From: Carboxydocellales bacterium
GTDB taxonomy: Bacteria; Bacillota; GCA-003054495; Carboxydocellales; JAJZTU01
Assembly: GCA_049302075.1 (NCBI GenBank)
Contig: JBAQLS010000046.1
Span: 148,436 to 212,435 of the forward strand
Direction: 5' to 3'
Length of the DNA: 64,000 nt
A program made the translations under genes and the position numbers. Under the pieces are notes generated by a model. It ran no database searches and had not been told where the DNA came from. It was given only the letters and a program-made list of their open reading frames with translations. Within the stretch, counting starts at the first letter, position 1. Every line of letters begins with the position of its first letter. Shown here in pieces: positions 5,169-58,068 of the stretch.

Positions 5169-5263
5169 TCATGGAAATTCTATACCTGAATCAAGAAAAG
5201 ACTCAGAACAAAGTGGAATAAGGGAATTCCAACTCCAACTCTGAGTCCTGCAAAAATTTTCAG

Positions 5264-21430: not shown

Positions 21431-21553
21431 CAGGCTGTTGAAATTCCCCGTCCAGCGTTGTCAGCAGAATCGCCAAGATCCTCAACGTACAGCCAGTACG
21501 CCTGCGGCCTTGGCGATTCTGCTTCCTAGCTGGACGAGTTTTTCAACAGCCTG
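21431..21553 (-). repeat. Near-palindromic structured repeat, family 2, copy A (~123 nt, inverted relative to the other copies)
   Basis: caggctgttgaaattccccgtccagc...ccaaggccgcaggcgtactggctgtacgttgagg...gctggacgagtttttcaacagcctg. Shares core and ends with copies at 32684, 47316, 51871 and 57943. Flanked by a 16-bp direct repeat aaacatagaattttac (21414-21429 and 21594-21609). Confidence 0.7.
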
Positions 21554-21607
21554 CCTGGGGTCATAGCTTTCCGCCTAGCTCCGCTAGACGCATTGAAACA
21601 TAGAATT

Positions 21608-23645: not shown

Positions 23646-23869
23646 CCGGTCGGATACAGGTCCCGGCTGGGTGCTCTTAGTTCCATGCTTAGCGGCTCTA
23701 AGCTGGTTTGGATAATAAAATTGACCAACCTCGACGATACGGCATCCTTGCCTAGGCGTTGAGGTTTCCGACGTCCTTGTCGGAAAGGTCGATTTTATTA
23801 CCCAACTGCGCTAAGAGCCGCTACGGCACTCCACCATGAGCACCCCACCGGAACCGGTATCCGACCTGG
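23646..23869 (+). repeat. Structured interspersed repeat, family 1, copy 2
   Basis: Same architecture as 315-538. Outer stem ggtcggatac / gtatccgacc. Inner hairpin stems carry two G-U pairs when read on the + strand. Confidence 0.7.
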
Positions 23870-23920
23870 CGGGTTTTTGGGGAGATGGCGGGGTGGGGTA
23901 TTTAGATAAAGCCGGGGTTG

Positions 23921-26810: not shown

Positions 26811-27902
26811 CTAGCCAACTATAACTTTCCTGGCCAGCATATCCACAAAGGCCTCAACTCTAGTTTTCATGCCCACATCAGAGGAATTCTCATCCACCAC
26901 CAGATTTAGCACCGGTATCCCGCAAGTGGCGCTAACTTTAGGCAAAATACCTTTGGCCACAATCTCCGGCATACAGGTCAGGGGCAAAATCTGAATCACC
27001 CCGTCATAACCCTGCGCAGCATAGTTTACCGTATTGCCCACAGAATCCAGTCCGTGTCCCCCCACCGTTGAGCCTAAAAAAGGCCGAGCCGCCCGAAGCA
27101 GACCCTTCCCGTAGCTGGTGCGTTCTAAGCCAATCAGATTAGTGCTTACCCAGTGGGATAGGTAAATTGACCGGGTCACTTCCACCCCCAGCTCACCTAA
27201 AAACTCTTCAATATGGGCATTACATACCGGTTCCAACAGCATATAAATATCCCCTACCAGACCAATCTTGAGGGGCCTGGCTTTATTTTTAGATTGGCCT
27301 TTTTCCGCCTTCAGCAGGTGGTTCAAAGCTCCCAAAGCCTCTGCCCGGCATTGCTCTACATCCCCGCTGGATTTGGCTTCCGCTAAGCTCTCCAGAAACT
27401 CTTGATAAATCCGGCTAGTTGCCCCACGCTCTTGCTCCCATGGCCTAACCAGGTGAGTTTCCCCTTCCACCCCATCCATAGCCTTTAGCATGGACCAGCC
27501 TAAGCGAATAGCCTGTCCCACCTCCGGCCAAGACTTGCCTCCAGCCTGTTGACGCAGGTGGTCAATATTAGCCTTAAAATTGCCCTTTTCCAAAATGAGC
27601 ATCGGGAAATTATAGCCCAAGTCTTGGAGAATAGCCTGATGCAGCCTGCCAAAATAGCCGAACCGGCAAGGCCCGGAGCCTCCCAGCATGACAATGGTAT
27701 CTGCTCCTAGCTCAAAGGCCTGGAGATAGTTGCCTAAATTAATCTTAAAAGGCAGACAAGCTCCCTCCCGGGCATACTTGCTGCCTAAGGCGATAGTTTG
27801 CTGATTAGTCTTGGGGGGGAGAATAACCTCCAACTCAAGTGCTTCAAACATAGCTTTTAAGGCAATGGCCAGATTGCCCATGTGGGGAAAGGTGATTTTC
27901 AT
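26811..27902 (-). CDS. DUF2229 'CoA-substrate-specific enzyme activase' domain protein (solitary paralog of 33746-34843)
   Basis: MKITFPHMGNLAIALKAMFEALELEVILPP...GGSGPCRFGYFGRL is a clear paralog of MKVTFPYMGTSHIAFKHLVNNLGHQALVPP...GGNGPCRAGIYGML. Confidence 0.6.
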   Translation of the reverse strand: MKITFPHMGNLAIALKAMFEALELEVILPPKTNQQTIALGSKYAREGACLPFKINLGNYLQAFELGADTIVMLGGSGPCRFGYFGRLHQAILQDLGYNFPMLILEKGNFKANIDHLRQQAGGKSWPEVGQAIRLGWSMLKAMDGVEGETHLVRPWEQERGATSRIYQEFLESLAEAKSSGDVEQCRAEALGALNHLLKAEKGQSKNKARPLKIGLVGDIYMLLEPVCNAHIEEFLGELGVEVTRSIYLSHWVSTNLIGLERTSYGKGLLRAARPFLGSTVGGHGLDSVGNTVNYAAQGYDGVIQILPLTCMPEIVAKGILPKVSATCGIPVLNLVVDENSSDVGMKTRVEAFVDMLARKVIVG

Positions 27903-27977: not shown

Positions 27978-28020
27978 AATCCAGAAAAAAGAAAACGCCA
28001 AACACTTTTCGTTTGGCGTT
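27978..28020 (-). terminator. Rho-independent terminator at the left edge of the AT-rich island
   Basis: aacgccaaac / gtttggcgtt stem with a T-run on the minus strand (A-run 27981-27990 on +). Confidence 0.6.
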
Positions 28021-28102
28021 CATGATGAATCAGCTACGTTAGTTGCTACCCTGCAGCATTTTCCTGCTGATCTTTTTGCTCATCTTCATCTTATGTAATT
28101 TC

Positions 28103-28492
28103 CTAGGTAAGCTGAAGTTTTTGATGTACAAAATTCATCACATGGTCAGCATCAACAACAGCTTTTTGCATATCGCTTTCTAAAATTTCAATCTCAAAAG
28201 GATATCTTGGCTGTACACCATATGGCGTAAGATTTACACAAGATTGACTTATCTCATCAAAGGTTTCATCAATATCGGCACACATTTTACATATTAATCT
28301 TAAGTCGTGAGTCCTAGGTGGCTCTACATCTTGATGTATAAGATAGCCTTTTAGCACTTTCTCTGCTGCTTGCTCACAGTGATAGCAAATGATTTCTATG
28401 GGAACCGGGCGCATATCTAAGAGATACTTTGCACAGCTGATATCTTTGTTTGCAAAATCAAGCCATTCTTTGACTATGTTGATTTTGTCCAT
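28103..28492 (-). CDS. HEPN-domain protein (toxin component of HEPN/MNT pair)
   Basis: 129 aa, all-helical. AEKVLKGYLIHQDVEPPRTHDLRLI fits the HEPN R-x(4-6)-H region. Overlaps the upstream MNT gene by 35 nt. Confidence 0.8.
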   Translation of the reverse strand: MDKINIVKEWLDFANKDISCAKYLLDMRPVPIEIICYHCEQAAEKVLKGYLIHQDVEPPRTHDLRLICKMCADIDETFDEISQSCVNLTPYGVQPRYPFEIEILESDMQKAVVDADHVMNFVHQKLQLT

Positions 28493-28805
28493 GCAGCATC
28501 ACCCCATCTCTGGCAACTGTTCTTTCGATAGTAGGCAACAGCTTGCGCTGATGAAAATTACTGGCTCTGCTTACGAGGATATCAATTGGCTTCTTTTGTT
28601 CTTTGTAGATGGCACTGCCAATGAGCTGCATGGCTTCAATTGGACGAATGCCGCCATCAGGAATCACTATATAAAGGTCGAAATCACTATCTTCTGAGGG
28701 CGTACCATAAGCATAGGAGCCAAAGAGGTATATCGCATCGGCTTCAACTGTATTCAGAATCGTTTGCTTAATATTTTCCAACTCATTGCTCGTTTGGATA
28801 TTCAT
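28458..28805 (-). CDS. Minimal nucleotidyltransferase (MNT; antitoxin component of HEPN/MNT pair)
   Basis: IYLFGSYAYGTPSEDSDFDLYIVIP is the GS...DxD polymerase-beta-type nucleotidyltransferase motif. Confidence 0.85.
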   Translation of the reverse strand: MNIQTSNELENIKQTILNTVEADAIYLFGSYAYGTPSEDSDFDLYIVIPDGGIRPIEAMQLIGSAIYKEQKKPIDILVSRASNFHQRKLLPTIERTVARDGVMLHGQNQHSQRMA

Positions 28806-29227
28806 ATCATCACCTACTTTATATGCTAATTATATCCATTTCCAAACTTTCGTCAAGCCAAGACGGTTAAGCATTTTGGTTTTTATACTCACGCAATACA
28901 GCCTCATTAGCCCGGAACAGATGGGCAGCAAGTTCTGTGCTGCCCATCTGTTCAAGTATTTTTTTCTTTTTCTCTAAGCCTTTTCGTTTATGTAGTATTG
29001 GAGCCTATCTCAACCATTTTCATGACGTCACGAAAATGGTCTACCATATTGATATTGCTGTTTTCACAGGCTTCCTTGGCTTTTTCTATAACATTATAGA
29101 AATTTTCCCAGCGGGCATATTCAAGAACAGGAGCCAATTCCCTTGCCAGCCAATATTCCTCTCCATATTCATTAAGGTGCTTAATTTCCTCAAAGGTTTT
29201 ATCGCTATACCTCTGAATATTACTCAT
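28806..29227 (-). pseudogene. DinD-like (DNA-damage-inducible protein D) gene, truncated/frameshifted
   Basis: 28988-29227 encodes the DinD N-terminus (FEEIKHLNEYGEEYWLARELAPVLEYARWENFYNVIEKAKEACENS...) and then stops. A DinD-like continuation (LEQMGSTELAAHLFRANEAVLREY) sits in another frame. A 13-bp perfect palindrome lies at 28918-28950. Confidence 0.5.
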
Positions 29228-29329
29228 GATCCCAACTCCTTGAGATACTTGGCCATTTGTGCTTCGACCAAACCTTACTATTTTTTGGTAAATTTTACAT
29301 ACAAAGATTTTAAAAGGTACTGTAGTGAT

Positions 29330-29599
29330 TTACTGCGGTCGGTAACCTATTTGCACTTCCCTAGTCAACTGCTTCCATGTTTTGCTCAGAAGGGTGTTGC
29401 CTTCTCCGCCCAGCAAATGCTTGAATGGATCAGGAAAGCCAGGGTCCCGAGGTTCCTCCAAGATGATTGTCCATCTCAGCCTCCGGAATTTGCTATAGGG
29501 AAAAATATCCCTCAGCTGGTTGGACACATCGTCCATGGTCTTACATCCCTTGGCCAACTCTCGAATCGTCTTGTTTGAATATCTTGCATAAATGATCAC
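29330..29599 (-). CDS. Hypothetical protein, possibly a mobile-element gene fragment
   Basis: 89-aa ORF in the AT-rich island. No confident family assignment. Confidence 0.25.
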   Translation of the reverse strand: MIIYARYSNKTIRELAKGCKTMDDVSNQLRDIFPYSKFRRLRWTIILEEPRDPGFPDPFKHLLGGEGNTLLSKTWKQLTREVQIGYRPQ

Positions 29600-29695
29600 T
29601 CTCCTTAAAGGAAATTATAACCACCTGCACAAAACTCAAAACGTTCTCCAAAATTATTGGCACACCCCTTACCCGTTGTTGCATTAAGCTTCACA

Positions 29696-31456
29696 TTATA
29701 CTTTAAGTAAAAACGATATAACCTTTTTTGCGTTTCGCGCATATATGGCGGTCATTTTTTCTTCAACAATCGTTAGATTTTTGTTTGCATGAAGATAGTA
29801 TTGAACAATTGGCAGTCGATAAGTATTATTATCAAGCACACGTTCCTTATCACTTTTACTGAGATTCATGAATTCCCGTCCGAGCAAAGATAACGACACT
29901 GTTCCCAACTTATTATCTTTATTCAAAACAATGAGATCTAGAAGTGCCATTATTCTTAATTCGTCGATAAGTGATTTTCTTTCTTTTTGATTGGAAATAC
30001 CAACACAGTCTTCAATATGTTTTATGCTAAAAGTTGCGCTTGAACTATCGGCAAAGATTTTTACCAACAAATCGATATAGTGTCCTGTACTATGGTCAGG
30101 AACGATACAAATACTTCTATCAAGTTCCACCATATCTGTATCATTTTGAATTATATTAACAATCTCATCCCTGGTTAAGTTAATGATAAGCTTAGCCAGA
30201 TATTTACCTACTATGCTATCCCTGGTTTCACACTCAGCATTTTTATATTTTAGGCAGTTACAATCAATCTCCTTTTCATAATACATCTTAATTACTTTTT
30301 CCCTGCTCAAATAACCATTAATAATAGCATCCCAAGTCTCCTTTTTTTCCTTGCATTGCGCACATTCCTGCTTGTTGCAGAATCTTCTACCATACCCCAA
30401 ATTAATAGTATATAAATTCTCATTCATCATCTTCAAATCGAAATATTTTTGAGCTATTTCAGGGTGCTCCGCTTCAAAGTCAACCATAGCACGATAAGCC
30501 GAACAAAACGTATCCGGATTAGGATGATAATATTGATTCCTTTCGCAGAATTCTCGGAAGGACATTTTCTTATAAAATTGGGGCTGGTTACACCATCTCG
30601 CAATTTGGATATATATGCCTTTATACCTACTCACTTTGTAAGCCTCATACCGCATTATATATGGCATACATCCAAATTTCATAAGGATGTGAATTCTCTC
30701 AAATACATCAATGATATCTTTCTCGTCTTGAGAATTATATGCACTTAAAATGTACATTTTGGGGTACTTGTTTGAATATCTCTTCCACAACTGCACTTTG
30801 CTAATGATTACATCTTTGTCGCTTAAATAGTCAAACGCAAAGATAACATCACCATAATATTTCACTTGATTAAGGCGGTGCGCTTTGTGCTCAGTGATTA
30901 ACCTTAAATCAATACCCTGTCTAAATTGAAATGGTTTTCCCGTTTCAACTAATTCATCAATAACTTCTTCCCAGTCGGGATAGCCAAGAATATTATCATC
31001 CCAAAGGTAAATTTTGGGGCGTTTTTCATCTAAAAACTCACGAACATATGCATGCCTCTGTACACGGTCGTATTTTTTATTGACACAAAAAACACACTTC
31101 CTAAAACATCCTCTTGTTGTGAAGCCAATTGAGAAATTCAAATAATCCGAATACCGTTGCATATCTTTACCATTTGCAACTTGATCCTCCCTTATCCCCG
31201 ATAAAACAGCCAAACGGCTAAAGGAGGTCTTACTATAGAAAGCCTTGATTTCCAGATGGTAATACTCCAAAAACCTTGATAGCGTTGGCCTCTCATCGGT
31301 ATCCTCCTGGAAGGAGGCCAGCTTGGTTACTAGCCCGGTCAGTCGTCCAAAGGCACTGCGAATGTTTTCCAGGACATACTCAGACGCCTTTTTCTCCAGC
31401 TGGATAAAACAGCCCTTGGGTAGATTTCCAAAGCCCTCTTTCAAGTCTCGACCCAT
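29696..31456 (-). CDS. Large radical SAM protein with uncharacterised ~250-aa Cys-rich C-terminal domain
   Basis: CxxxCxxC (GCFRKCVFC) preceded by TTR, with a DDN motif shortly after. The ORF is open to 31561, but its first 16 codons cross a perfect 14-bp palindrome/terminator. I place the start at the ATG at 31456; starting instead at the ATG at 31162 would put the Cys motif ~18 aa in. Confidence 0.7.
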   Translation of the reverse strand: MGRDLKEGFGNLPKGCFIQLEKKASEYVLENIRSAFGRLTGLVTKLASFQEDTDERPTLSRFLEYYHLEIKAFYSKTSFSRLAVLSGIREDQVANGKDMQRYSDYLNFSIGFTTRGCFRKCVFCVNKKYDRVQRHAYVREFLDEKRPKIYLWDDNILGYPDWEEVIDELVETGKPFQFRQGIDLRLITEHKAHRLNQVKYYGDVIFAFDYLSDKDVIISKVQLWKRYSNKYPKMYILSAYNSQDEKDIIDVFERIHILMKFGCMPYIMRYEAYKVSRYKGIYIQIARWCNQPQFYKKMSFREFCERNQYYHPNPDTFCSAYRAMVDFEAEHPEIAQKYFDLKMMNENLYTINLGYGRRFCNKQECAQCKEKKETWDAIINGYLSREKVIKMYYEKEIDCNCLKYKNAECETRDSIVGKYLAKLIINLTRDEIVNIIQNDTDMVELDRSICIVPDHSTGHYIDLLVKIFADSSSATFSIKHIEDCVGISNQKERKSLIDELRIMALLDLIVLNKDNKLGTVSLSLLGREFMNLSKSDKERVLDNNTYRLPIVQYYLHANKNLTIVEEKMTAIYARNAKKVISFLLKV

Positions 31457-31499
31457 GCTTCGGGTGGTATTAACCAGTACGATGAGATTTTTTGAGAGT

Positions 31500-31545
31500 G
31501 CAACCCCCAAAACACAAGAAATACTCCTTAGGAGCATGCTCCTAA
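31500..31545 (-). terminator. Perfect palindrome plus T-run: terminator of the SPFH gene
   Basis: tactccttaggagc atg gctcctaaggagta (14-bp arms), followed on the minus strand by tttcttgtgtttt. Confidence 0.6.
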
Positions 31546-31579
31546 GGAGTACATCAAACACTGTTTAATTTAAGAAGGT

Positions 31580-32422
31580 CTATCTTGTTTGATTGATATC
31601 AACGAAAGGAGTCGCTCCACCAGTTACAGTTGGGAGTTTACCGTCCCATTTCTCAATGGCTTTCATTTGAGCTTCAATTTGTCTCAAATCAATTAACTCT
31701 TGAGTAACTTCTTGTTTTTGAAGACGCAGAGATTCGGCTTCAGCTTTAGCCTGCTCAATTTTTTGCTGTGCCTCAACTGTGATCCGTTGCAGGTCAAGCT
31801 TTGCTTTTAAGGCGTTTTGTTCAGCGATTTGTTTTTGCTCAATGGCGTTATTGTATTCTTTACTGAACCTAAATTCAGTAATGTTAATTTCATCTAGAGA
31901 CATAAAGTAAGTTGAAAGTTTAGCGGCAAGGGTTTCCTTAACCTTGGAACTGACTTCTGACCGTTTGGAAATCAGTTCTTCAGCGGTGTATTGTGCAGTA
32001 ACTGCTTTAACTGCTTCACCAATTGCAGGAGCCACAATTCGGTCATCATAGGCTAAACCAACATTTTGATAAAGCTTATTGACTTCGTCCGGAACTAGGT
32101 GAAAGTTTACAGCGACCGTTGTGGTAACAATTTGTAAATCCTTGGAAGCAGCAGTTTGATCTGACTGGGATTTTCCAACTCGCACATCAATGGGGATAAC
32201 TTGTTGAATGAACGGAATTTTAAAATGAAATCCTGGACTCATGACAAGGGGTTTCACTGCGCCTAGTTGAAGTACAACTCCTCGTGTCCCTGCTTGAACA
32301 ACAACGACAGAGTTGAAAGCAATAAAGAGTAGAATAAGCCCTACTATGGCAAGGGGAATTAGTATTCTAGCAGCTTTTTCGCTTGGTTTTGGAATCATGT
32401 TAATCACTTTATCTGGATCCAT
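31580..32422 (-). CDS. SPFH/band-7 (prohibitin/stomatin-like) membrane protein
   Basis: N-terminal TM helix and SPFH core (VVVVQAGTRGVVLQLG...), then a C-terminal coiled coil (EQAKAEAESLRLQKQE...). Confidence 0.85.
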   Translation of the reverse strand: MDPDKVINMIPKPSEKAARILIPLAIVGLILLFIAFNSVVVVQAGTRGVVLQLGAVKPLVMSPGFHFKIPFIQQVIPIDVRVGKSQSDQTAASKDLQIVTTTVAVNFHLVPDEVNKLYQNVGLAYDDRIVAPAIGEAVKAVTAQYTAEELISKRSEVSSKVKETLAAKLSTYFMSLDEINITEFRFSKEYNNAIEQKQIAEQNALKAKLDLQRITVEAQQKIEQAKAEAESLRLQKQEVTQELIDLRQIEAQMKAIEKWDGKLPTVTGGATPFVDINQTR

Positions 32423-32683
32423 TACTCATCCTCCTTAATAAATTCGCTAATTATTTATTTAATTTGACTTCACAACTTATAGCATACCTTATGTGTCACT
32501 ATTTAGCTAGCAAACACTGAATAATTTTTCAAATCGGAATTTTTCAAATCATTTTTTGACATCTGGCAGTACCAGTCCTTCCACATTTTTCAAGCGATCC
32601 ACAACACCACACACTCCACATGTGCTGTATGTGTGAACGTGAACGTGAACATATCCACCGACCAAACCACTATTAGACCCGTG

Positions 32684-32806
32684 TAGGCTGTTGAAAAACC
32701 CGTCCAGCTAGGAAAAATCATTGCCAAGGCCGCAGGTGTACTGGCCGTACATCGAGGACCTTGGCAATGATTTTGACAACGCTGGATGGGGAATTTCAAC
32801 AGCCGT
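32684..32806 (+). repeat. Near-palindromic structured repeat, family 2, copy B
   Basis: taggctgttgaaaaacccgtccagc...ccaaggccgcaggtgtactggccgtacatcgagg...gctggatggggaatttcaacagcc. The middle stem keeps pairing with a different sequence (aaatcattgccaagg / ccttggcaatgattt). Preceded by a (gtgaac)x3 microrepeat. Confidence 0.7.
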
Positions 32807-32807
32807 A

Positions 32808-33761
32808 CTAGATGGTCTCCCATTTTCCGCATCTATCCCCCCACCGGGCCAGCAGCTGTTTATCCACCGAAATATTAATTACCTCGCACAGGTTGGAGCA
32901 CCCCTGGCACTCAAAGCTGCTAGCCCGGTAATCCATATCACTTACCGCAAAGCCCTTAAAGGCCGTCTCCTCCTTATGCTTAACCTCTTCTCTGGCTAAC
33001 AAAGCTACTCCGATGGCCCCCATTACATTAAAATGCTCCGGGATGATGATCTCCTTGCCCAACGCCTTCTCAAAAGCCGCCCTAATCCCCTGGTTGGCAG
33101 CCACCCCACCCTGGAACACTACCGGGGCCAAAACCTCCTTGCCTTTCCCCACATTGTTTAAGTAATTCCGCACCAAGGCTTCACACAGCCCGGCAATAAT
33201 ATCTTCCGTATTATGACCCATCTGTTGTTTATGGATCATATCCGACTCGGCAAATACCGAACACCGCCCGGCAATCCGCACCGGGGTTTTGGACTGTAAC
33301 GCCATATCCCCGAATTCCTCAATAGGAATATTCAGCCGGGAGGCCACTTGATCCAGGAATGACCCTGTTCCTGCCGCACATACCGTATTCATGGCAAAAT
33401 CCGTTACCACCCCGTGGCGCAGCAGAATAATCTTGGAATCCTGTCCCCCGATTTCTAGAATAGTCTGGGCCTGGGGCACCAGATGGGTAGCAGCCACCGC
33501 ATGAGCGGTAATTTCATTTTTGACTACATCCGCTCCCACCATTACGCCGGTAAGGTGGCGGGCGCTGCCGGTAGTCCCTACCCCACAAATCTGAAAATCC
33601 GCAGGCAAAAGGTTAGCCATTTCCCCCAGACCCTGTTTCACAGCCATAATGGGCTGGCCTTTAGTGCGGATATAAATACCTTGCAGTACCTTCCCCTGAG
33701 CATCTATCACCACCACATTGGTACTAACTGAGCCTACATCAATTCCTAAATAGCCGTCCAT
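32808..33761 (-). CDS. BadF/BadG/BcrA/BcrD-type ATPase (acyl-CoA dehydratase-activase family)
   Basis: LGIDVGSVSTNVVVID is the ASKHA phosphate-1 motif, GVGTTGS the phosphate-2 motif, plus conserved Cys pairs. 317 aa. Confidence 0.8.
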   Translation of the reverse strand: MDGYLGIDVGSVSTNVVVIDAQGKVLQGIYIRTKGQPIMAVKQGLGEMANLLPADFQICGVGTTGSARHLTGVMVGADVVKNEITAHAVAATHLVPQAQTILEIGGQDSKIILLRHGVVTDFAMNTVCAAGTGSFLDQVASRLNIPIEEFGDMALQSKTPVRIAGRCSVFAESDMIHKQQMGHNTEDIIAGLCEALVRNYLNNVGKGKEVLAPVVFQGGVAANQGIRAAFEKALGKEIIIPEHFNVMGAIGVALLAREEVKHKEETAFKGFAVSDMDYRASSFECQGCSNLCEVINISVDKQLLARWGDRCGKWETI

Positions 33762-34843
33762 CCTGTCCCCTCCTCCTTCCAGCGCCGTTTCTGCTCTAAC
33801 AGGTCCACAAACGCCTCCAAGCGAGTCTGCAGCCCTGCTTTGCCCGTTTGCTCATCCAGGAACACCGTCAGCACCGGTATCCCCAATTCCCGGCTAATTT
33901 TAGGCATCAGGCTTTTGACCACAATTTCCGGAATGCAGGTGAAGGGAGCTAGTTGAATTACCCCATCGTAGCCCTCCTGGGCGTATAATACAGTTTCCCC
34001 TACGCTGTTAATGCCATGACCCCCGATTAGTTGCGCTAAATAGGGTTGGGCCGCAGTTTTAGCATCGATTTTTTTACTGGTGGTATTCTCCCTGGTCCAA
34101 TCCGTCAGGTAAATGGAACGATTAGCGTAGACTCCCATTTCCCCTAAAGTCCTTTCCACATCCAAGTTTATAAAGGGCTCCAACAGCACATAGATTTCAC
34201 CGATAATGCCAATTTTCAACGGCTTCCTGGACTGATCCTGAGGCAACCCCTTCATAAGCTGAATGGTGCTGCTTTTAGCCTTGGCAATCTCTGCCCTGGT
34301 CTGAGCCAAATCAATCATTTCCACACATTGCTTAAATACCTTGGTAGTCTCTCCTCTGTTTTGCTCATAGGGCCTAACCTTATTGGCTAAAATTTCAATT
34401 TCGTCTAGGGCGCAAAGCTTAGCCCAGCTTTCTCGATACACCTTCACAAAGTTCAGCCAGGAAGTCCCCCCCGTCTTTAGCATTCGTCTAACCTTTTTTA
34501 GAAAGCTAAAGGGTTCCTGGAAGATGGATTCAAAAACTATCATTTCGAATTTATAGCCCAGACTTTTTAAAATTCGTTCATGGAGCATCCCATAAATACC
34601 GGCGCGACAGGGTCCATTGCCTCCGGAGGTAATAATTAATTCTGCCCCTAGCTCCAAAGCTTCAATATAACTCCCTAGAATCACCTTAAAAGGAATACAG
34701 GCAAACTCCGGAGCATGTTGGGTTCCATAAGTAAGGGTCCGTTTGCTGGGAGGTGGCGGCACCAAAGCCTGGTGACCCAAGTTGTTAACTAAATGTTTAA
34801 AGGCAATATGGGAGGTCCCCATATATGGAAAGGTTACTTTCAT
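33746..34843 (-). CDS. DUF2229 'CoA-enzyme activase' domain protein (subunit b)
   Basis: Paralog of 26811-27902. Overlaps both neighbouring genes, consistent with translational coupling in an operon. Confidence 0.65.
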   Translation of the reverse strand: MKVTFPYMGTSHIAFKHLVNNLGHQALVPPPPSKRTLTYGTQHAPEFACIPFKVILGSYIEALELGAELIITSGGNGPCRAGIYGMLHERILKSLGYKFEMIVFESIFQEPFSFLKKVRRMLKTGGTSWLNFVKVYRESWAKLCALDEIEILANKVRPYEQNRGETTKVFKQCVEMIDLAQTRAEIAKAKSSTIQLMKGLPQDQSRKPLKIGIIGEIYVLLEPFINLDVERTLGEMGVYANRSIYLTDWTRENTTSKKIDAKTAAQPYLAQLIGGHGINSVGETVLYAQEGYDGVIQLAPFTCIPEIVVKSLMPKISRELGIPVLTVFLDEQTGKAGLQTRLEAFVDLLEQKRRWKEEGTGWTAI

Positions 34844-35826
34844 CGGGCTTCCCTCCTCATCCGTACCATATCTACAAAGGCCTCTATCCGGGTTTGCATC
34901 CCCGCCTCTCCCGAGTGCTCATCTATGGTTATAGTCATAAAGGGGGTTGGTCCCTTTTCCCGGGCTTCCAGCTCGATTAACTTATCCACCATGGCATCCG
35001 GCCCACAGCCAAAAGCGGAAAGGTGAATTATCCCGTCAATATGGGGCTGCTCTATATAGTAGAATGCCGCCCTGATCACCAAATTGCTATAGTGCCAAAA
35101 TAGCGTCTTGGGTAGTTTTTTAGCCTGGCGGCGCAGCTCTCGGGCGGATACCATTTCTGCCGTCCACACCTTTACCCCCATTTTCTCCAAGTATTTTAAC
35201 ATGTTGACACTTACATAGGAATCATAAACCTCATAAGGATAACCAACTACTGCTAGGTTAACCAATCTAGCCTTGGCAATCAGAGGCATTTTCCCAGGGT
35301 TTTGCTCAACCCCGCTTAAGTAATCCAGGGCCTCCTGAGGGCGAAGCTTCCCCAGCAAAAGCTGTTGGTATTTCTTCTGGGCCTTCACCGCTTTATAATA
35401 GGCACCCATCACCAACCACAAGCCTTTACCCAGCTTTCCCCCGATTTCCCGGCACACCCGGAAAAGTTCAAACTTACCCCGTTTTAAGTCTATCCTGGTA
35501 TCAATAATTCCCGGCAGACCTTCTATGGAGTGTTTAATCATATCCGGCAACCCTAAAAATTTAGGGCAAAAGGTAGCCTCCCTAGTCACACTCACCATGC
35601 GCGGGATAAATAAATAGTCTACCTTGTCCTTTAAGGCTAATACATGACCATGAAAAAGCTTTACCGGTACACAGGCATCATTGACCGCTTCAGCTACACC
35701 ACAATCCATAATTTCTTTAGAAGTTGTGGGCGAAGCTACCACTTCAAAACCCAATTCTTCAAAGAAAGTTTTCCATAAGGGGAAATAACTGAAGTAAATC
35801 AGCGTTGTCGGAATTCCGATTCTCAT
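34840..35826 (-). CDS. DUF2229-related 'CoA-enzyme activase' domain protein (subunit a)
   Basis: MRIGIPTTLIYFSYFPLWKTFFEELGFEVV... is a distant relative of the same family. It is the first gene of the three-gene operon. Confidence 0.55.
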   Translation of the reverse strand: MRIGIPTTLIYFSYFPLWKTFFEELGFEVVASPTTSKEIMDCGVAEAVNDACVPVKLFHGHVLALKDKVDYLFIPRMVSVTREATFCPKFLGLPDMIKHSIEGLPGIIDTRIDLKRGKFELFRVCREIGGKLGKGLWLVMGAYYKAVKAQKKYQQLLLGKLRPQEALDYLSGVEQNPGKMPLIAKARLVNLAVVGYPYEVYDSYVSVNMLKYLEKMGVKVWTAEMVSARELRRQAKKLPKTLFWHYSNLVIRAAFYYIEQPHIDGIIHLSAFGCGPDAMVDKLIELEAREKGPTPFMTITIDEHSGEAGMQTRIEAFVDMVRMRREAR

Positions 35827-36029
35827 CCAGCCACTGCTCCTTTTGGGCCTTTATCCCCCAATTTAATCTTACGTACCGCTTAATGTATATTTACGGATTT
35901 AGCTATATTTTATTATTAAATAAAAATAGGTGTCAACCATACATTGCAATACACTAACGTTGCATTAAAATAATTTTGAACAGAGTTAAATTTTTTATCT
36001 CTAATTTGCTCTCATTCACAAATCGTCTA

Positions 36030-37172
36030 TTATTCCTTTACTTCCACACCATCGGCTAATCGATCTGCCCCTTGAACAACAATCAGCTCACCCGCATGCA
36101 AACCCTGGACAATAACTGTTGATTCTTCACTTCTAAGACCTGTATGAACAGCGGTTTTCACTGCTTTACCTTCTTTCACGACCATGACATAATCCTTGTC
36201 GTCCCGTCTCAGAAGCGCAAAATTGGGAATGACTAAAACCGATGGATTTTTCACAGTAATTTTAGCCGTAGCCGTCATCCCTGCTTTTAACACACCCTCC
36301 GGATTATCTACGGCTACTTTTACCGGGAAAAACTGTCCCGTTGGAATGGATATTGGACTGACATAAGAAATTTTTCCCGTAAAGGTTCGGTTTGGAATAG
36401 AATCTACGGTGACTTCTACAGGATTTTCTACCTTAACATAGTTTATATAGCTCTCTGAGAGATTTCCAGTTAAAGCCAGTTGATTTGTTGCTATAATCGT
36501 TGCTACAGGGATGCCGGGGCCAACCGTATCTCCAACAGAAACATTACATGTTACTAAAATTCCATTGATCGGACTCTTGATATCCATTTTTGCTAAATTT
36601 ATGTTGATTGCATTGATTGTTGCTTGAGTTGCATTAAGACCCGCCCCTTTAGCAGCTTCATATTGGAATTTGGCAATATCCCTTTTTAAGGAAATTTGTT
36701 CCATTTGTTGTTGGGAAGTCGCTCCTGACTTATAGAGTTCCTGATATCGAGTATAATCCTTTTCCGAGTTTTCATAATTGATATGGGCCTGTTCTGCCAA
36801 TGCCTGACTATTGGCAAGCCCTGCTTTGGCCTGTTCTAGTTGGTTTAACAGGTCTGTTTTGTCTAAGGAAATAATATTATCTCCCTTTTTAACAAAGGTT
36901 CCTTCCTTAGCTCTTACTGCAATGACTTTTCCCGGAAGTTGGGCACTTAGATTGGACTTTTCCTGAACATCAATGACCCCGGTTAATGCTAAATCTCCGC
37001 CAAAATCCTGTAATTTGACTTCATCCGTTTTTACGAGTACTGGGGCTCCGACAGGGTCAGCGGCAGGTTTCGCTGGAATAGCGCATCCTATAAGAGCCAT
37101 AAATCCTGCTAAGGCTAAAAGGATCAGACTTATTTTTTTTTTATTTAGAACATTTGTGTTCATTTTCAACAT
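36030..37172 (-). CDS. Efflux membrane-fusion (periplasmic adaptor) lipoprotein, HlyD/RND-adaptor family
   Basis: Lipobox (ALIGC), then a coiled-coil hairpin, lipoyl-like and beta-barrel domains. The ORF is open to 37223, but starting at MLKMN avoids overlap. Confidence 0.75.
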   Translation of the reverse strand: MLKMNTNVLNKKKISLILLALAGFMALIGCAIPAKPAADPVGAPVLVKTDEVKLQDFGGDLALTGVIDVQEKSNLSAQLPGKVIAVRAKEGTFVKKGDNIISLDKTDLLNQLEQAKAGLANSQALAEQAHINYENSEKDYTRYQELYKSGATSQQQMEQISLKRDIAKFQYEAAKGAGLNATQATINAININLAKMDIKSPINGILVTCNVSVGDTVGPGIPVATIIATNQLALTGNLSESYINYVKVENPVEVTVDSIPNRTFTGKISYVSPISIPTGQFFPVKVAVDNPEGVLKAGMTATAKITVKNPSVLVIPNFALLRRDDKDYVMVVKEGKAVKTAVHTGLRSEESTVIVQGLHAGELIVVQGADRLADGVEVKE

Positions 37173-37191
37173 AATCCTTATCCTCTTTTCG

Positions 37192-37893
37192 TTATTCTGT
37201 GATATGGATTTTGGCCGTAACACTCGTCCCGGGTAAAAGCCCCAGTTTATTTATTTCCGGAAAGCGTATTTTTAGCGGAATCCGTTGCGTAACTTTGGTA
37301 AAGTTACCATTGGCAGATTGCATCGGTAAAATAGCAAAAGTTGAAAGTGCTGCTTTCCCAAGCTCATCTACCCTTCCCTGAAAGGTTTTTCCGGGTAAGG
37401 CATCAATCTTCAGTTCAACAAGTTGACCGACTTTTACTTTCCCTATTTCAGTTTCATCAATATTCACATCAACAAAGAGATCGCTTGTATCGGCTATCAC
37501 CGCGAGAGGTTGCCCAGTTCCGGCTAATTGCCCTACACGTACGGAAGTCTTAATCACTTGGCCGGAAATTGGTGCGGTAATCTCCGCTTTACTAACCACG
37601 ATGCTTCCTACGGGATTAATCGCACTGGGGTTTACACTCGCTGTACTGGCAATAGCATTTGTATCCTGCCACCCAATCGTTGCTCCGGCTTTAACATATT
37701 CCCCTTCAGAAACATTCCATGATGTTATTTTACCCGAGATGATCGGGCTTACATTTACTGTATAAGCATTAATACGTGCGTCATCCGTAGTAATATAACG
37801 AGACATTTGATACCAATAATAACCTCCAATTCCCCCGCCAATTATTAAGAGTACAATAAGTACCACTGAAATTACGATCTTTTGATTTTTCAT
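37192..37893 (-). CDS. HlyD-family membrane-fusion protein (EmrA-like, short)
   Basis: N-terminal TM anchor (IVISVVLIVLLIIGGGIGG), biotinyl/lipoyl-like half-motifs and a beta-barrel. Confidence 0.7.
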   Translation of the reverse strand: MKNQKIVISVVLIVLLIIGGGIGGYYWYQMSRYITTDDARINAYTVNVSPIISGKITSWNVSEGEYVKAGATIGWQDTNAIASTASVNPSAINPVGSIVVSKAEITAPISGQVIKTSVRVGQLAGTGQPLAVIADTSDLFVDVNIDETEIGKVKVGQLVELKIDALPGKTFQGRVDELGKAALSTFAILPMQSANGNFTKVTQRIPLKIRFPEINKLGLLPGTSVTAKIHITE

Positions 37894-37912
37894 GATTCTT
37901 CTTCCTCATTTC

Positions 37913-39457
37913 TTAACTTTGTTTTTCCCCACGAATCAAAACCATGATAGGCTTTTGAACTAAGAAAAGGGCAGGTAATATACCGATTAAGCCTAAGATC
38001 ATATTGGCGTAGAACGCATCTTGAAACGCTAAAACAGCCGCTTTTTCCTGGGCTATCCTATACAGAGTCAATAAATTAAGCACTTGGGCCTCAGGAGACT
38101 GAAGTCCCAAACCTTGAAATAAGGGAGTTAACGGTTCAAAGGACTGCACAGTATATGACCACGGGGTGGCGGTTGTAGCTAAATTAGCATAATGCCAAGG
38201 AGTCCGCTGCTGAATCAAGCTGGTAAGAATTGCTACGCCTACGGCACTTCCAATTTGACGTACCATATTAAAAAATGCTGACCCCTGATTAACTAATTCA
38301 TTTGGTAGCGAACTATAGGCTAACGTAACAGAAGGCATGATACCGAGACCAAGCCCCACTCCTATAATGAATAAGTACTGTCTAATTGCGCTTATACTTG
38401 TATTGATATCAAGATTAACGAAAAATAATGAGCCGAGCGTCATAATTACAATCCCAACAATGGTTAATATTGATCCTCCAATCCGGGGGAGAAGAACAGC
38501 ACTGACTGGAATGAAGAGAATAATACCCAAAACTTCCGGCAACAGCATCATGCCAGTTTCCATAGCACCTAATCCACTAAGTTGTTGCAAGAATAAAGGC
38601 AGGAGAAAGAGGCTGCCAAATAAACTCATGATAATAAAAAATGTAACGACTAGGGAACTTGAATAAATTCGGTTTTTAAATATTCTTAAGTCCAATATAG
38701 GATCAGTCGAATAGGCTTCCACAAGAAAAAACAAAATTAAACTACCTATCGCAATAAAAAAGAGAAAAACAATATTAAAAGACGTCCAACCTTCGTCGGT
38801 TCCGTTACTTAGAGCTAAGAGCAACGTAGAGAAACCTAATGCCGATAGTACAAAACCCCAAAAATCAAATTTTTTAGCAATCGTTTCAAATTCGTGTAAT
38901 AAAAAATATGATGCGTAGATCGCCAACAAACCGATGGGGAGGTTGATCCAAAAAATCATCCTCCAATTATAAGTCTCGACCAAATATCCACCGATCGTTG
39001 GTCCAATGGCAGGAGCAATCAGTAAAGGAATACCCATCAATCCCATAGCCAATGGGAGTTCTTTTTTAGTAAAGGTTTTCTCAACGATGGACAAAGCCAG
39101 AGGCATAATCATACCTCCACCAACCGCTTGGATAATCCGAAAGAAAATAAGGGTATTAATATTCCAAGCCAATGCAGATAAGATAGAACCGCCCATAAAA
39201 ATAAAGAGACTCAAAAGATATATCTTTTTCATTCCTCTTGTATCCGCCCAATAAGCCGTAATCGGTTCAAAAACACCGATGGTTACCATGTAAGCGGTAA
39301 CAATATACTGAGAAAGACGTATATCTGTCCCAAGTTCCAACATAATATCTGGGATGGCAACGTTAACAATCGTCATATCCATGATATCCATAGATAACCC
39401 TAGAACAACAGCAATTAGGCAAAGCCATTTCCCCCATTTTCCAAACATAATCCTCAC
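37913..39457 (-). CDS. MFS drug:H+ antiporter, DHA2 (EmrB/QacA) family, 14 TMS
   Basis: 514 aa, 14 predicted TM segments, MFS motif A-like loops. Operon with two membrane-fusion proteins. Confidence 0.85.
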   Translation of the reverse strand: MRIMFGKWGKWLCLIAVVLGLSMDIMDMTIVNVAIPDIMLELGTDIRLSQYIVTAYMVTIGVFEPITAYWADTRGMKKIYLLSLFIFMGGSILSALAWNINTLIFFRIIQAVGGGMIMPLALSIVEKTFTKKELPLAMGLMGIPLLIAPAIGPTIGGYLVETYNWRMIFWINLPIGLLAIYASYFLLHEFETIAKKFDFWGFVLSALGFSTLLLALSNGTDEGWTSFNIVFLFFIAIGSLILFFLVEAYSTDPILDLRIFKNRIYSSSLVVTFFIIMSLFGSLFLLPLFLQQLSGLGAMETGMMLLPEVLGIILFIPVSAVLLPRIGGSILTIVGIVIMTLGSLFFVNLDINTSISAIRQYLFIIGVGLGLGIMPSVTLAYSSLPNELVNQGSAFFNMVRQIGSAVGVAILTSLIQQRTPWHYANLATTATPWSYTVQSFEPLTPLFQGLGLQSPEAQVLNLLTLYRIAQEKAAVLAFQDAFYANMILGLIGILPALFLVQKPIMVLIRGEKQS

Positions 39458-39522
39458 CTCCTGGGGAGTATTTGCTTTAAATACCTAAAAGGCCCAAAAA
39501 ATATATAAATCAATTTCTTTAA

Positions 39523-40506
39523 TCATATATTGGATCGTATTAGGGTTGCCCCCCACGTTAATCCTGCTCCGAATCCTAACAATAAAAAAAGATCTCCTTT
39601 CTGTATCTTATGGTTTTCATAGGCTTCCGCTAAAGCGACGGGTATAGAGGCTGAAGACATATTTCCGTATTTTTCAATATTACAGTAAATTTTTTCGGGT
39701 GCTATCTCTAAGCGTTGTGAAACTGATTGTAAAATTCGTTTATTGGCCTGATGAGGGATAATCAAGCTGATTTTGTCGAGATTTACCGAAGACTTATAGA
39801 GAAGTTCCTGTACAGTTTTTTCAAAGATTTTTACGGCGAACTGAAATACAGCACTGCCATTCATAACTATTGTATTGGAATGGGCATTTAATAGCTCATG
39901 GGTAAGAGGCAGCCTGGAGCCTCCGGCCGGTACTTGCAGTAATTCCCATCCTGAACCGTCAGCCCCTAGTGTAGAGTTCAGGATTCCATACCCCTGGGGA
40001 ACTTCTCCGAGGATAAGTGCTCCTGCTCCATCTCCAAACAAGATACTTGTATGGAGATCTTCATCGTTGGTAATTTTTGAATAGATATCGGCACCAATCA
40101 GTAAGATTTTTTTGTAGCGTCCCGAAAGAAGGTAATTTGCAGCAATATCTAATCCATAGATAAAACCACTGCAGGCAGCGGAGACGTCAAAGGCTGCTGC
40201 TTTATAAGCTCCGATCGTGTTCTGAACCAGACAGGCAGTTGAAGGAAAGAGCATATCGGGTGTAGTTGTTGAGACTATAATTAAGTCAATGTCTGAAGGA
40301 GTAAGATTCGCATTATGCAAGGCAGATAATGCGGCTTTTGCAGCTAGGTCTGACGTACTTGCATCACTCCTAGCCTTTCTCCGTTCCTTGATGCCTGTTC
40401 TTTCTTCAATCCAGCTATCAGCTTTATTAAACCGCTGGGCAATTTCTAAATTAGTGATTACTAATTCAGGCAAGTAGTATCCATAACCTAAAATTCCTAT
40501 ACTCAT
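39523..40506 (-). CDS. 3-oxoacyl-ACP synthase III (FabH/KAS III)-like condensing enzyme
   Basis: Cys-His-Asn triad contexts: AACSGF, PHQAN, GNMSSAS. 327 aa. Confidence 0.85.
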   Translation of the reverse strand: MSIGILGYGYYLPELVITNLEIAQRFNKADSWIEERTGIKERRKARSDASTSDLAAKAALSALHNANLTPSDIDLIIVSTTTPDMLFPSTACLVQNTIGAYKAAAFDVSAACSGFIYGLDIAANYLLSGRYKKILLIGADIYSKITNDEDLHTSILFGDGAGALILGEVPQGYGILNSTLGADGSGWELLQVPAGGSRLPLTHELLNAHSNTIVMNGSAVFQFAVKIFEKTVQELLYKSSVNLDKISLIIPHQANKRILQSVSQRLEIAPEKIYCNIEKYGNMSSASIPVALAEAYENHKIQKGDLFLLLGFGAGLTWGATLIRSNI

Positions 40507-40571
40507 TATTGATTAAACAACTCCTTAAAAATAAAGTTTTAAATAATGCACTTAAATTTAGAATTAGAACA

Positions 40572-41042
40572 TCAATTCAAGAATTTTACTCTAAACAAAT
40601 ATCTAATTCTTACAAAAAACTCCTGCATTGTTACTGCTTTATCGGCAAACGAAACTAAAAAGGCTTCATAGCTAGAGGGCCAAAAAATAGTAAGCGGCCA
40701 CATGTGGCTAATAATAATGCCTTTTTCTTTAGAGTTAAGCTCAAAGCAACGCTCGGCATTTTGGCACGCAATCCGGGGATGTCGAAGACCGTGCCAGCGT
40801 GAACCATCGGGACGGGGTAAATGCCAGTCATAAAGGTAAAAATCATGGAGGAGTGCACCACGTGTCGCTGAGCGGACATCAAGTTTTATAATACTATTTA
40901 ATCTACCTGACCAAGAATAAGTTAAATGAGCAACATTAAGTGAGTGTTCCAAAATACTGAATGGATGGTGATGAGTAAAGTTTGCCAGTTGTTGAAATTC
41001 AGGATGCTCAAGAATGTCCTTGATTAAGTCATTAAAATTCAA
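40572..41042 (-). CDS. HD-domain phosphohydrolase
   Basis: H...HD metal motif (LEHSLNVAHL...LLHDFYLYDWH). 156 aa. Confidence 0.65.
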   Translation of the reverse strand: MNFNDLIKDILEHPEFQQLANFTHHHPFSILEHSLNVAHLTYSWSGRLNSIIKLDVRSATRGALLHDFYLYDWHLPRPDGSRWHGLRHPRIACQNAERCFELNSKEKGIIISHMWPLTIFWPSSYEAFLVSFADKAVTMQEFFVRIRYLFRVKFLN

Positions 41043-41060
41043 TGGAATCGTCCTTTCTGG

Positions 41061-41837
41061 TCATTTATCGCTTTTCATATGACGTATTTTCTCAAGAGAA
41101 TCTCTCTTAAGGTGTTCAAGCGCAGCCTGTTTTTCTTGAATAAAAGATACCGATTCTGAAAGTGTGTGGCGTATTTTTGGATAGGTTGAAATTAGCCGCC
41201 TAAAATAAACACGGGCCGAATGAAGATTGGGAGTCTCTAAATGTCCACTAATTTTATTTATAAAGCTAAGTGAGATATCAAATTGGTGTAAAAGAATAGT
41301 GGAAAGTACCAGGTCAATAACGAAATATATTGCAAAAATTGTGGCCAAGATTAATTTCAAACTGGGCGGGATTTGGATAAATAATGATTCAATGAAAGGT
41401 TGTAGATAATATTCAAAGACAAGTCCTAATCCCCCCCATAAAAGAGAAAAAGGTAGAGCAACCCGCCCTTTATAGTTTAGAGGAGTATCTTTATAACTCC
41501 ATAATTGCAAGTGAAAAAAACGTTCTAACAATATGCCGGACAAATACTCTATGATGGTACTTAGGAAAACGAAAAACACAAAAGCTTTTTCCCAAGAAGT
41601 AAGCAGCCAGTTCCCATCCGTTAGGACAACAATCAAAGCAAACGAACCATAAATCGGGAGCAAAGGCCCTTTCAACAAACCGGGATTTACAAAATGGCGC
41701 TGTTTCATTGAACGATAAGTCGTTTCTAATATCCAGCCTGCTAACGAATAAAACGCAAAGATTAATATTAAAAAGGCAATGTCATTAACCGGATGTGCTG
41801 TTACCATAGCCATTCGCTCCCCTGTTCCATTAAACAT
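41061..41837 (-). CDS. Polytopic membrane protein of unknown function
   Basis: 258 aa with about 6 TM segments. Divergent from the regulator gene. Confidence 0.5.
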   Translation of the reverse strand: MFNGTGERMAMVTAHPVNDIAFLILIFAFYSLAGWILETTYRSMKQRHFVNPGLLKGPLLPIYGSFALIVVLTDGNWLLTSWEKAFVFFVFLSTIIEYLSGILLERFFHLQLWSYKDTPLNYKGRVALPFSLLWGGLGLVFEYYLQPFIESLFIQIPPSLKLILATIFAIYFVIDLVLSTILLHQFDISLSFINKISGHLETPNLHSARVYFRRLISTYPKIRHTLSESVSFIQEKQAALEHLKRDSLEKIRHMKSDK

Positions 41838-41925
41838 ACAAGATAAAAAGTCAGTTGCTTTTTACTTTTTATTAGATTAAACTATACCCAAAAGACCCAA
41901 AAAGTATCTATTAAAAAGATATATC

Positions 41926-42660: not shown

Positions 42661-42738
42661 TGTAATACAATGCAATCAGGAATAAAGGATAAGGAGCCTG
42701 AATAATTCGGGCTCCTTATCCCTAGGAAGGGAATTTGT

Positions 42739-44412: not shown

Positions 44413-44470
44413 ATAACAGTATAAATTTCATACTTAGTATTTATTTTAACAATACCTAAGGATTTTTCCT

Positions 44471-46045: not shown

Positions 46046-46270
46046 CCGGTCGGTTGCCTAACCCGGCGGGGTGCTCTTAGCTCCATACCGTGCGGCTCTA
46101 AGCACAGATGGCCTAATAAAATTGACCGACCTGGACAATACGGCATCCTTGCCTAGGTGTCCAGGTTGCCGCCTTCCGTGGCGGCAAGGTCAATTTTATT
46201 GGCCATCTGCGCTTAGAGCCGCTACGGTACTCCACCAGGAGCACCCCACCGGGCCAGGCAACCGACCTGG
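46046..46270 (+). repeat. Structured interspersed repeat, family 1, copy 3
   Basis: Same architecture as copies 1 and 2. Outer stem ggtcggttgcc / ggcaaccgacc differs in sequence from the other copies but still pairs. Middle stem gcggctctaagc / gcttagagccgc. Inner hairpin loop atacggcatccttgcctagg is shared with copy 2. Confidence 0.7.
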
Positions 46271-58067: not shown

Positions 58068-58068
58068 T

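Follow-up and report, generated by a model that had tools for sequence, protein, structure and literature searches.

Introduction

Radical S-adenosylmethionine (SAM) enzymes bind a [4Fe-4S] cluster through the motif CxxxCxxC. In MiaB and RimO, two methylthiotransferases of this superfamily, three conserved cysteines of the N-terminal domain hold an auxiliary cluster and the C terminus carries a TRAM domain. Among the systems that attack foreign DNA, DndFGH and DrmAB normally need a cognate modification module. The radical SAM enzymes linked to DNA were only two by the time of a study published as PMC8989533: spore photoproduct lyase and gp53 of phage M6. The latter is a radical SAM isomerase of thymidine hypermodification, a protective modification, and acts on DNA; it is spore photoproduct lyase-like and works on an intermediate derived from 5-hydroxymethyldeoxyuridine within a multi-enzyme phage pathway (PMC8989533). 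Here, we analyze a radical SAM gene found in 64,000 nucleotides of a Carboxydocellales metagenome-assembled genome (assembly GCA_049302075.1, contig JBAQLS010000046.1, positions 148,436 to 212,435 of the forward strand), a stretch that we call the window and whose first letter is position 1. The gene lies in an AT-rich island at about 28.0 to 32.7 kb, next to a gene for an SPFH/band-7 protein, and an initial annotation had singled out the two as a candidate for a new defense or stress module.

Our analysis leads to a different picture. The locus in the window is ordinary, a decaying defense island in which a radical SAM-SPFH system does not, in our assessment, exist. The lead worth following lies outside the window: the intact relatives of this gene form a radical SAM family that seems not to have been described before, and in several restriction-type defense modules they stand in the place of the modification enzyme.

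An open reading frame made of two unrelated pieces

The radical SAM gene had been read as an enzyme of about 585 residues. Its membership of the superfamily stands, but the gene is not intact, as its first ~125 codons have no counterpart in the family. The open reading frame (ORF) spans 621 codons on the minus strand (29696-31561) and, as the comparisons below indicate, is the in-frame junction, at ~31185, of two unrelated pieces. One comes from the interior of a DEAD/DEAH helicase of the type-IV-restriction kind (31184-31468, minus strand; codons ~32-126 of the ORF). The other is what remains of a radical SAM gene, its 3' four-fifths (29696-31186, minus strand), which corresponds to family residues ~108-605 and includes the CxxxCxxC core, a second cysteine triad, a four-cysteine module, and a winged helix. 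The motif pointed out at first, GCFRKCVFC, is indeed there (C152/C156/C159), and CxxxCxxC is found in 99% of the 79 family members over which we computed cysteine conservation.

Comparisons with relatives show that the beginning of the gene is lost. Window positions 31186-29661 align with positions 4866-6392 of the related locus L005 at 89% nucleotide identity; the L005 gene starts at 4545, and the window copy therefore lacks the first 321 nucleotides (~107 codons). In the family alignment (A1), every relative opens with a conserved region of ~125 residues (MKIGIIDADLMDNGTRHPNLALMK...), where the window copy has unrelated sequence. The missing domain is Rossmann-like and holds ~28 positions conserved at ≥90% across the 78 other members. 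The phage model PHROG 9298 gives the same result, since the intact relative P0003 matches positions 1-296 (1.2e-53) and the window ORF just 91-296 (8.5e-35). When the window protein was searched by tblastn against species-representative genomes, all 80 of the 80 matches began at query residue 76 or later, most of them at 125-135. Relatives cover just ~75-80% of the window ORF, except for an identical protein of a Carboxydocellales metagenome-assembled genome; the protein cluster that carries the N terminus of the window copy has one member, on one contig, and no other among the ~3,700 clusters of the family shares it. The remainder of the ORF is 83-84% identical to the intact relative P0002.

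The helicase fragment matches positions 592-682 of the 945 of the PADLOC model mREase_IV (E 3e-5) and residues 691-788 of a 1050-aa DEAD/DEAH helicase of Peptoclostridium acidaminophilum (41.8% identity, E 1e-17, tblastn). Beyond these 98 residues, we found in the window no other piece of that helicase, nor of the C-terminal part of the PLD-DEAD-DUF3427 enzyme encoded at the related locus L004. At the junction, the GC content drops from 0.49, in the helicase fragment, to 0.35; the radical SAM piece (0.345) comes from a horizontally acquired gene.

Sequence models say little about the ORF. At E<0.01 there was no match in Pfam or NCBIfam, and a sequence search of the PDB was likewise empty; the radical SAM model PF04055 reaches 14.9 bits (cutoff, 29.5), over residues 148-179 only. 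Hence, such models do not recognize this radical SAM family.

A widespread family of radical SAM proteins

The intact relatives are proteins of 600-630 residues that make up ~3,700 clusters at 90% identity, none of which has a precomputed Pfam domain. They occur in at least 200 species-representative genomes, spread over Bacillota, Bacteroidota, Actinomycetota, Chloroflexota, and Lentisphaerota, and an archaeon and phages carry them too. Neither Pfam nor NCBIfam has a model for the family, and PADLOC v2 lacks both a model for the gene and a system definition that includes it. Intact members match the whole of PHROG 9298, a "radical SAM domain protein" with no assigned function, whose model covers only ~300 residues, the N-terminal domain and the core. 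The family and its cassettes are undescribed in the full-text literature that we searched, subscription-only papers aside. We considered and rejected Ophion, a different system whose three genes encode PHP and phosphoribosyltransferase proteins together with a radical SAM enzyme of the viperin-like kind (10.1101/2025.09.30.679545).

What does the cysteine-rich tail, in which the initial annotation recognized no match, consist of? The AlphaFold2 model of P0002, the closest intact relative (84% identical over the shared part), was built from an alignment of 70 sequences and is of high confidence (predicted local distance difference test, 91.3; predicted template modeling score, 0.86). It contains the partial TIM-barrel fold of the radical SAM core and resolves the tail as a four-cysteine module followed by a winged helix; by sequence, no characterized family emerged. 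Two further sets of cysteines accompany the CxxxCxxC motif. The second comprises C324 (100%), C339 (91%), and C353 (84%). The third (C400, C403, C436, and C444) is restricted to the long forms, nearly all of which have it; short forms, of 350-450 residues, have no such tail. This conservation in the long-form subfamily shows that the tail is a four-cysteine module with a winged helix and not noise.

The structural relatives of the family, with their listed values, are MgmA (17.8), AprD4 (17.4), MiaB (15.9), RimO (15.8), CysS and TsrM (both 14.1), and TokK (11.3). In the model, the Rossmann-like N-terminal domain of the intact relatives can be superposed onto its counterparts in MgmA, TsrM, and CysS, which is a similarity of fold; AprD4, MiaB, and RimO share this fold without cobalamin. 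The cobalamin-dependent (class B) radical SAM enzymes and the relatives with a B12-like N-terminal domain (MgmA, 9ccb; TsrM, 6wte; CysS, 9n1b; TokK, 7kdx; AprD4, 6fd2) are just 11-16% identical to the family. Compared with class B, the family adds the conserved cysteine triad and, in the long forms, the four-cysteine module and the winged helix. Its context also differs, being made of nucleases and helicases and not of biosynthetic genes, and the window copy is without the N-terminal domain altogether. In contrast to MiaB and RimO, the family has no conserved cysteine before CxxxCxxC, and therefore lacks the site of the auxiliary cluster of methylthiotransferases, and a winged helix replaces the TRAM domain.

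Genomic company of the intact relatives

We took a census of the genes around 82 non-redundant loci of the family and found a nuclease or helicase module in or beside 70 of them, mostly co-directional with the radical SAM gene and in most cases directly adjacent to it. Six types can be told apart. The most frequent, type B (31 loci), encodes a helicase with a weak PLD-like N terminus and an ERCC3-type C terminus, a 63-aa protein, an SMC_N/AAA_23 ATPase, and a 143-aa protein. Type A (24 loci) has a ParB_N-like protein of 335 residues, a 137-aa protein, an SNF2 helicase that matches the ZorD and DpdE models (5e-44 and 1e-39), and a second ParB-like protein of 329 residues. The others are less common: type C (4 loci) carries DndF (1e-144), DndG (1e-116), and DndH (E 0); type D (4 loci) a 786-aa protein without any match, DrmA (1e-173), and DrmB (8e-56); type E (3 loci) a GmrSD_N/DUF262 protein; and type F (4 loci) a small PD-(D/E)XK (PDDEXK_11) nuclease. 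Examples of intact cassettes are those of Clostridium paridis (type A; L004, 6057-11854), C. cavendishii (type C; L017, 9683-20090), and a Bacteroidales locus (type D; L084, 9566-19414), as well as the pair with the PD-(D/E)XK nuclease (type F; L051, 9683-11269). The remaining 12 of the 82 loci have no recognized partner, but 5 of these lie on contigs too short to judge. The short homologues of phages adjoin a DNA methyltransferase, a ParB-like gene, and helicases.

These partners overlap with those of known systems, namely DISARM, Dnd, Dpd, and classical restriction-modification. They include bona fide DrmA/B and DndF/G/H as well as PD-(D/E)XK nucleases; the SNF2 helicases match models of ZorD and of DpdE, the SNF2-like protein of Dpd, and ParB-like proteins are also shared with Dpd (its DpdB is ParB-like). 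The difference from all these systems is that the radical SAM gene stands in the slot usually taken by a methyltransferase, DndABCDE, or DpdA. At L017 (type C; out to ~6.9 kb) and L084 (type D; out to ~6.5 kb), none of the five larger upstream ORFs that we scanned at each locus encodes a methyltransferase or DndA-E; the downstream flanks of both loci are filled by partner genes, and that of L084 ends 1.2 kb past DrmB. The family also differs from gp53, since it has another architecture, is mostly cellular, and is found beside restriction-type modules.

Intact type-A cassettes stand in surroundings that resemble defense islands (flanks of L001 and L004; L004, 1-988). Their neighbors include a PLD-DEAD-DUF3427 enzyme resembling type IV restriction enzymes, an SLFN-like helicase with NUDIX, and a MazG-like protein, and the first of these, at L004, is of the kind from which the fused helicase fragment of the window derives. 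In a locus of Lentisphaerota (L006, 5116-6966), a gene with an RVT_1 domain splits a DUF3150 gene of a CbbQ/CobT/VWA cluster, just upstream of a type-B cassette. This insertion of a reverse transcriptase is probably a group II intron.

A possible role in marking self DNA

We lean somewhat toward the view that the intact members are radical SAM enzymes that mark the DNA of their own cell, while the neighboring nuclease or helicase module would attack foreign DNA that is unmarked. In this scheme, the enzyme would bind DNA through its C-terminal winged helix and use SAM-derived radical chemistry to place a covalent mark on the DNA of the host. The adjacent module would spare marked DNA and attack unmarked invaders, following the logic of restriction-modification with a radical SAM enzyme in place of a methyltransferase or DndABCDE. 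The short versions of phages could then be orphan modifiers with a protective role. The simplest guess for the mark would be a C-methylation, because the predicted fold resembles that of B12-type methylases.

GmrSD-type enzymes typically restrict modified DNA, and the GmrSD-like neighbor of some loci fits this simple self-marking scheme poorly. It speaks for a rival explanation, since such neighbors would need no self mark: the radical SAM enzyme may mark no DNA at all. Its product might instead be a small molecule or nucleotide with antiviral action, like those of viperins or of OpnA from Ophion, or it might modify RNA or a partner protein, with the neighboring nucleases and helicases as independent effectors. 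In agreement with this, the radical SAM enzymes known from defense act on nucleotides (10.1101/2025.09.30.679545). Furthermore, the structural neighbors of the family act on proteins, RNA, and small molecules. We nevertheless regard this explanation as rather unlikely. The predicted C-terminal winged helix argues against it, as does the position of the gene in the slot beside DndFGH and DrmAB, with no methyltransferase or DndA-E in the upstream ORFs scanned. The pairing with a small PD-(D/E)XK nuclease recalls type II restriction-modification, and the phage copies adjoin DNA methyltransferase and ParB-like genes.

Returning to self-marking, a more ambitious and more tentative reading would place the window gene in this picture. 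It might be the relic of an undescribed class of immunity of the restriction-modification kind, in which a two-domain radical SAM protein with a winged helix would serve as an interchangeable "self" arm. Under the same tentative reading, the mark left by the enzyme might be, for example, a C-methyl group or some other non-canonical adduct, and the enzyme might be exchanged for methyltransferases or DndABCDE; its modules might be DISARM-like, DndFGH, ParB/SNF2, PLD-helicase/SMC-ATPase, or type-II-like, and the short orphan copies of phages might counter them. If self-marking by cellular radical SAM enzymes were true, it would be a new chemistry for epigenetic discrimination between self and non-self. 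It could explain DndFGH and DISARM-like modules that seem to lack a cognate modifier. The more ambitious reading, if true, would also imply a new and widespread epigenetic modification of DNA in anaerobes, including lineages of Bacillota and Bacteroidota that are common in gut metagenomes.

Relic, functional orphan, or assembly artifact

The copy in the window is probably a non-functional relic, unrelated to the SPFH gene. We read it in this way because the N-terminal domain is lost and every partner gene of the intact relatives is missing, none being found anywhere in the 64-kb window. Upstream, the ORF has a terminator and no evident Shine-Dalgarno sequence.

Several observations weigh against a relic. 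No stop codon breaks the 497-codon frame of the radical SAM part. The ratio of nonsynonymous to synonymous substitution rates (dN/dS) relative to the closest intact relative (L005) is 0.26 (core, 0.17; tail, 0.35) and thus below 1, although this is a weak test for a pseudogene, since the two genes may have diverged for the most part before the truncation; pairs of intact genes have values of 0.05-0.17 with a saturated dS. Together, the ratio and the open frame suggest that the decay is recent or that some constraint persists. The two pieces are fused in frame, and the NCBI annotation lists a protein of 604 residues. Seven related loci with adequate flanks have no recognized partner, and orphan copies can therefore exist. 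Finally, the junction is known from a single metagenome-assembled contig.

One rival reading is that the chimeric ORF encodes a functional orphan enzyme with a remodeled N terminus, for example, an orphan modifier of DNA that has outlived its restriction partners. The open 497-codon frame and its dN/dS, the presence of orphan copies elsewhere in the family, and the retention of CxxxCxxC, the second cysteine triad, the four-cysteine module, and the winged helix all favor such an enzyme. We consider it improbable, given what has been lost and what has taken its place. The lost domain has ~28 positions conserved at ≥90% in all the other members, and its counterpart in the structural relatives packs against the radical SAM core. 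The replacement is a fragment from the inside of a helicase and forms no domain, the N terminus it creates is unique among the ~3,700 clusters, and the gene is preceded by the terminator, with no visible Shine-Dalgarno sequence.

We judge another possibility even less probable: the junctions could be artifacts of the metagenome-assembled genome, in which reads of different organisms were joined. The sharp switches of GC content at ~31185 and ~29661 would fit such an error, as would the finding of the exact protein on one contig of one assembly. Yet both parental reading frames are kept across the junction, unique sequence lies on either side of it, and no repeat that could mislead the assembler was detected there. 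Other genes of the island, such as dinD, have independent internal deletions typical of real decay, and the one in dinD suggests that the decay here is real.

The SPFH gene and its adjacency to the radical SAM gene

The SPFH/band-7 protein of the initial annotation is confirmed. Its gene (31580-32422, minus strand) encodes a membrane protein of 280 residues, prohibitin/HflKC-like, which matches Band_7 at 1.6e-38 (132.9 bits, against a gathering cutoff of 23.6) and, weakly, HflK and HflC. The likeness to SPFH/HflKC proteins is one of domain; no NfeD or FtsH partner is nearby. A terminator hairpin with a 14-bp stem (31521-31552, minus strand) follows 28 nucleotides past the stop codon and falls in codons 4-14 of the 621-codon ORF, so that the first 14 codons of the latter are this hairpin read as protein. 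The gene looks intact and, from these signals, seems to form a transcription unit of its own.

The proposal that the radical SAM and SPFH proteins form an undescribed two-gene module for defense or stress had its reasons. The two genes adjoin each other in the same direction, 18 nucleotides apart by their ORF coordinates, in an AT-rich island and with a toxin-antitoxin (TA) pair alongside. We searched for the pair in 88 related radical SAM loci (8 obtained by look-up of exact proteins and 80 from species-representative genomes), and in none of them (0/88) was an SPFH, HEPN, or minimal nucleotidyltransferase (MNT) gene found beside the radical SAM gene within the flanks. The adjacency is thus not conserved elsewhere, although it is also the case that the radical SAM protein matched no characterized family by sequence. 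The terminator of the SPFH gene sits within the first codons of the big ORF, and the two genes differ in GC content (0.403 for SPFH and 0.345 for the radical SAM piece). Moreover, the 5' part of the big ORF is a helicase fragment, and the adjacency with SPFH must therefore have arisen by deletion or recombination. A functional pair is, in view of all this, extremely improbable. Of the earlier description, the accessory island, the TA pair, and the wreckage of dinD hold; the new module of radical SAM and SPFH proteins does not.

The AT-rich island and its edges

The drop in GC content described for ~28.05-32.6 kb is real. Between 28022 and 32677 the GC content is 0.387, whereas the flanking genes have 0.47-0.52 and the remainder of the window 0.453. 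This places the island in the lowest 6.7% of equal-sized (4.66-kb) segments; it is not the poorest region of the window, since 39.8-44.5 kb is poorer still (0.369). Further AT-rich stretches occur at 36000-45000 and 58000-63000 (GC of 0.35-0.41), one of them below the island in GC content, and these may be further accessory regions. Inside the island, where all ORFs of interest are on the minus strand, the GC content is a mosaic. It ranges from 0.345 in the radical SAM piece to 0.493, a host-like value, in the helicase-derived stretch that occupies 280 nucleotides upstream of it. Between these extremes lie the HEPN gene (0.369), the N-terminal fragment of dinD (0.375), the SPFH gene (0.403), the MNT gene (0.425), and a small ORF at 29330-29599 (0.478).

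The edges given for the island were also recovered. On the left there is a hairpin resembling an intrinsic terminator, with a 12-bp stem and a T-run (27993-28021, minus strand), located after the HEPN gene. On the right, directly 3' of an activase gene, lies a copy of a structured repeat of ~125 nucleotides (32678-32805). The window has three more copies of it, at 21431-21559 (inverted), 51889-52003, and 57943-58066. The repeat forms one long imperfect hairpin in which 13 of the 48 predicted pairs show compensatory double changes among the four copies, and its ends are conserved (GGCTG-TTGAAAAACCCG ... GGGGAATTTCAACAGCC). In a scan of Rfam, it scored below the gathering score of every family. 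It may be a repetitive extragenic palindromic (REP)- or miniature inverted-repeat transposable element (MITE)-like element, or a structured RNA.

On one side of the island, the last gene of a conserved operon of the BadF/HgdC-type activase stops at 32808; on the other, a paralogous HGD-D-like gene starts at 27902. The island interrupts paralogous BadF/BcrA/HgdC activase and DUF2229/HGD-D-like genes (26811-27902 and 32808-35826), with the second HGD-D-like paralogue, 26811-27902, on its far side. We compared this arrangement with 80 metagenome loci that have homologues of the activase (65-74% identity). They keep the upstream three-gene unit (p328-hgd365-activase), and downstream of the activase none of the 80 has an SPFH, HEPN, MNT, or radical SAM gene. 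In two of them (L153 and L159), an HGD-D-like gene follows 73-92 nucleotides past the activase, which is the layout expected of the window minus the island. The region at 28.0-32.7 kb thus appears to be a lineage-specific accessory region that was inserted. What weighs against this is the distance of the relatives that provide the empty sites: because they are only 65-74% identical, these loci are supportive evidence and not a strict empty site. No tRNA is present as an integration signal, and no integrase or transposase domain was found among the island ORFs scanned with Pfam, NCBIfam, and PADLOC. The island is a graveyard of defense-island genes beside an apparently intact MNT-HEPN pair.

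The MNT-HEPN pair and the remains of dinD

In type VII TA systems, the RNase activity of HEPN is neutralized by AMPylation. The overlapping MNT-HEPN pair of the island, already recognized from the letters alone, is supported by domain matches. The HEPN-domain gene, the toxin-like half, encodes 129 residues (28103-28492, minus strand) and is apparently intact, matching positions 1-115 of the 117 of the Pfam HEPN model (4.3e-21). The MNT gene encodes 115 residues (28458-28805, minus strand), overlaps the former by 35 nucleotides, and matches Polbeta (2.5e-10), NTP_transf_2 (3.5e-8), and PADLOC PDC-S09 (1.6e-9). The genes fit type VII systems by domain, but the MNT falls short of the cutoff of the MntA equivalog model (5e-9; 35.9 bits, under a cutoff of 60). 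A promoter scan found a promoter-like site ahead of the MNT gene (28829-28856; 11/12 matches), and the hairpin at 27993-28021 closes the unit. The pair looks intact, with a putative promoter and a terminator of its own.

The dinD gene, described as degraded, remains in two fragments that match separate parts of the model of 288 positions (NF008573) in different frames. The first is an ORF of 79 residues (28988-29227, minus strand) with a Bro-N-type N terminus (Bro-N, 1.1e-6), which covers positions 4-79 at 2.7e-29 and 102 bits, against a cutoff of 242. The second (~28900-28995, minus strand) covers positions 187-218 (E 3e-7, 30 bits). The island copy does not reach a full-length match to DinD, and we take it for a pseudogene that has lost its middle and its end. 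A strong hairpin with a 16-bp stem and a T-run lies in this wreckage (28915-28953, plus strand), on the strand opposite to the genes.

The ORF at 29330-29599 (minus strand, 89 codons) had been proposed as a fragment of a mobile gene, which we reject, since no collection that we searched holds a real homologue. Pfam, NCBIfam, PADLOC, and PHROGs gave nothing, tblastn found no match in a plasmid collection, and phmmer against 1.84 billion representative proteins returned translated tandem-repeat junk only. This stretch, of host-like GC content, is probably non-coding or unrecognizable debris.

Other features of the window

Three kinds of elements outside the island complete the description. A TwoAYGGAY RNA (Rfam RF01731, 47.8 bits) lies at 346-504 on the minus strand. 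Repeats that share its sequence, with scores under the Rfam gathering score, are found at 23646-23876 and 46046-46277. Near the other end of the window, a c-di-GMP-I riboswitch aptamer (RF01051, 67 bits) occupies 62212-62298 on the minus strand.

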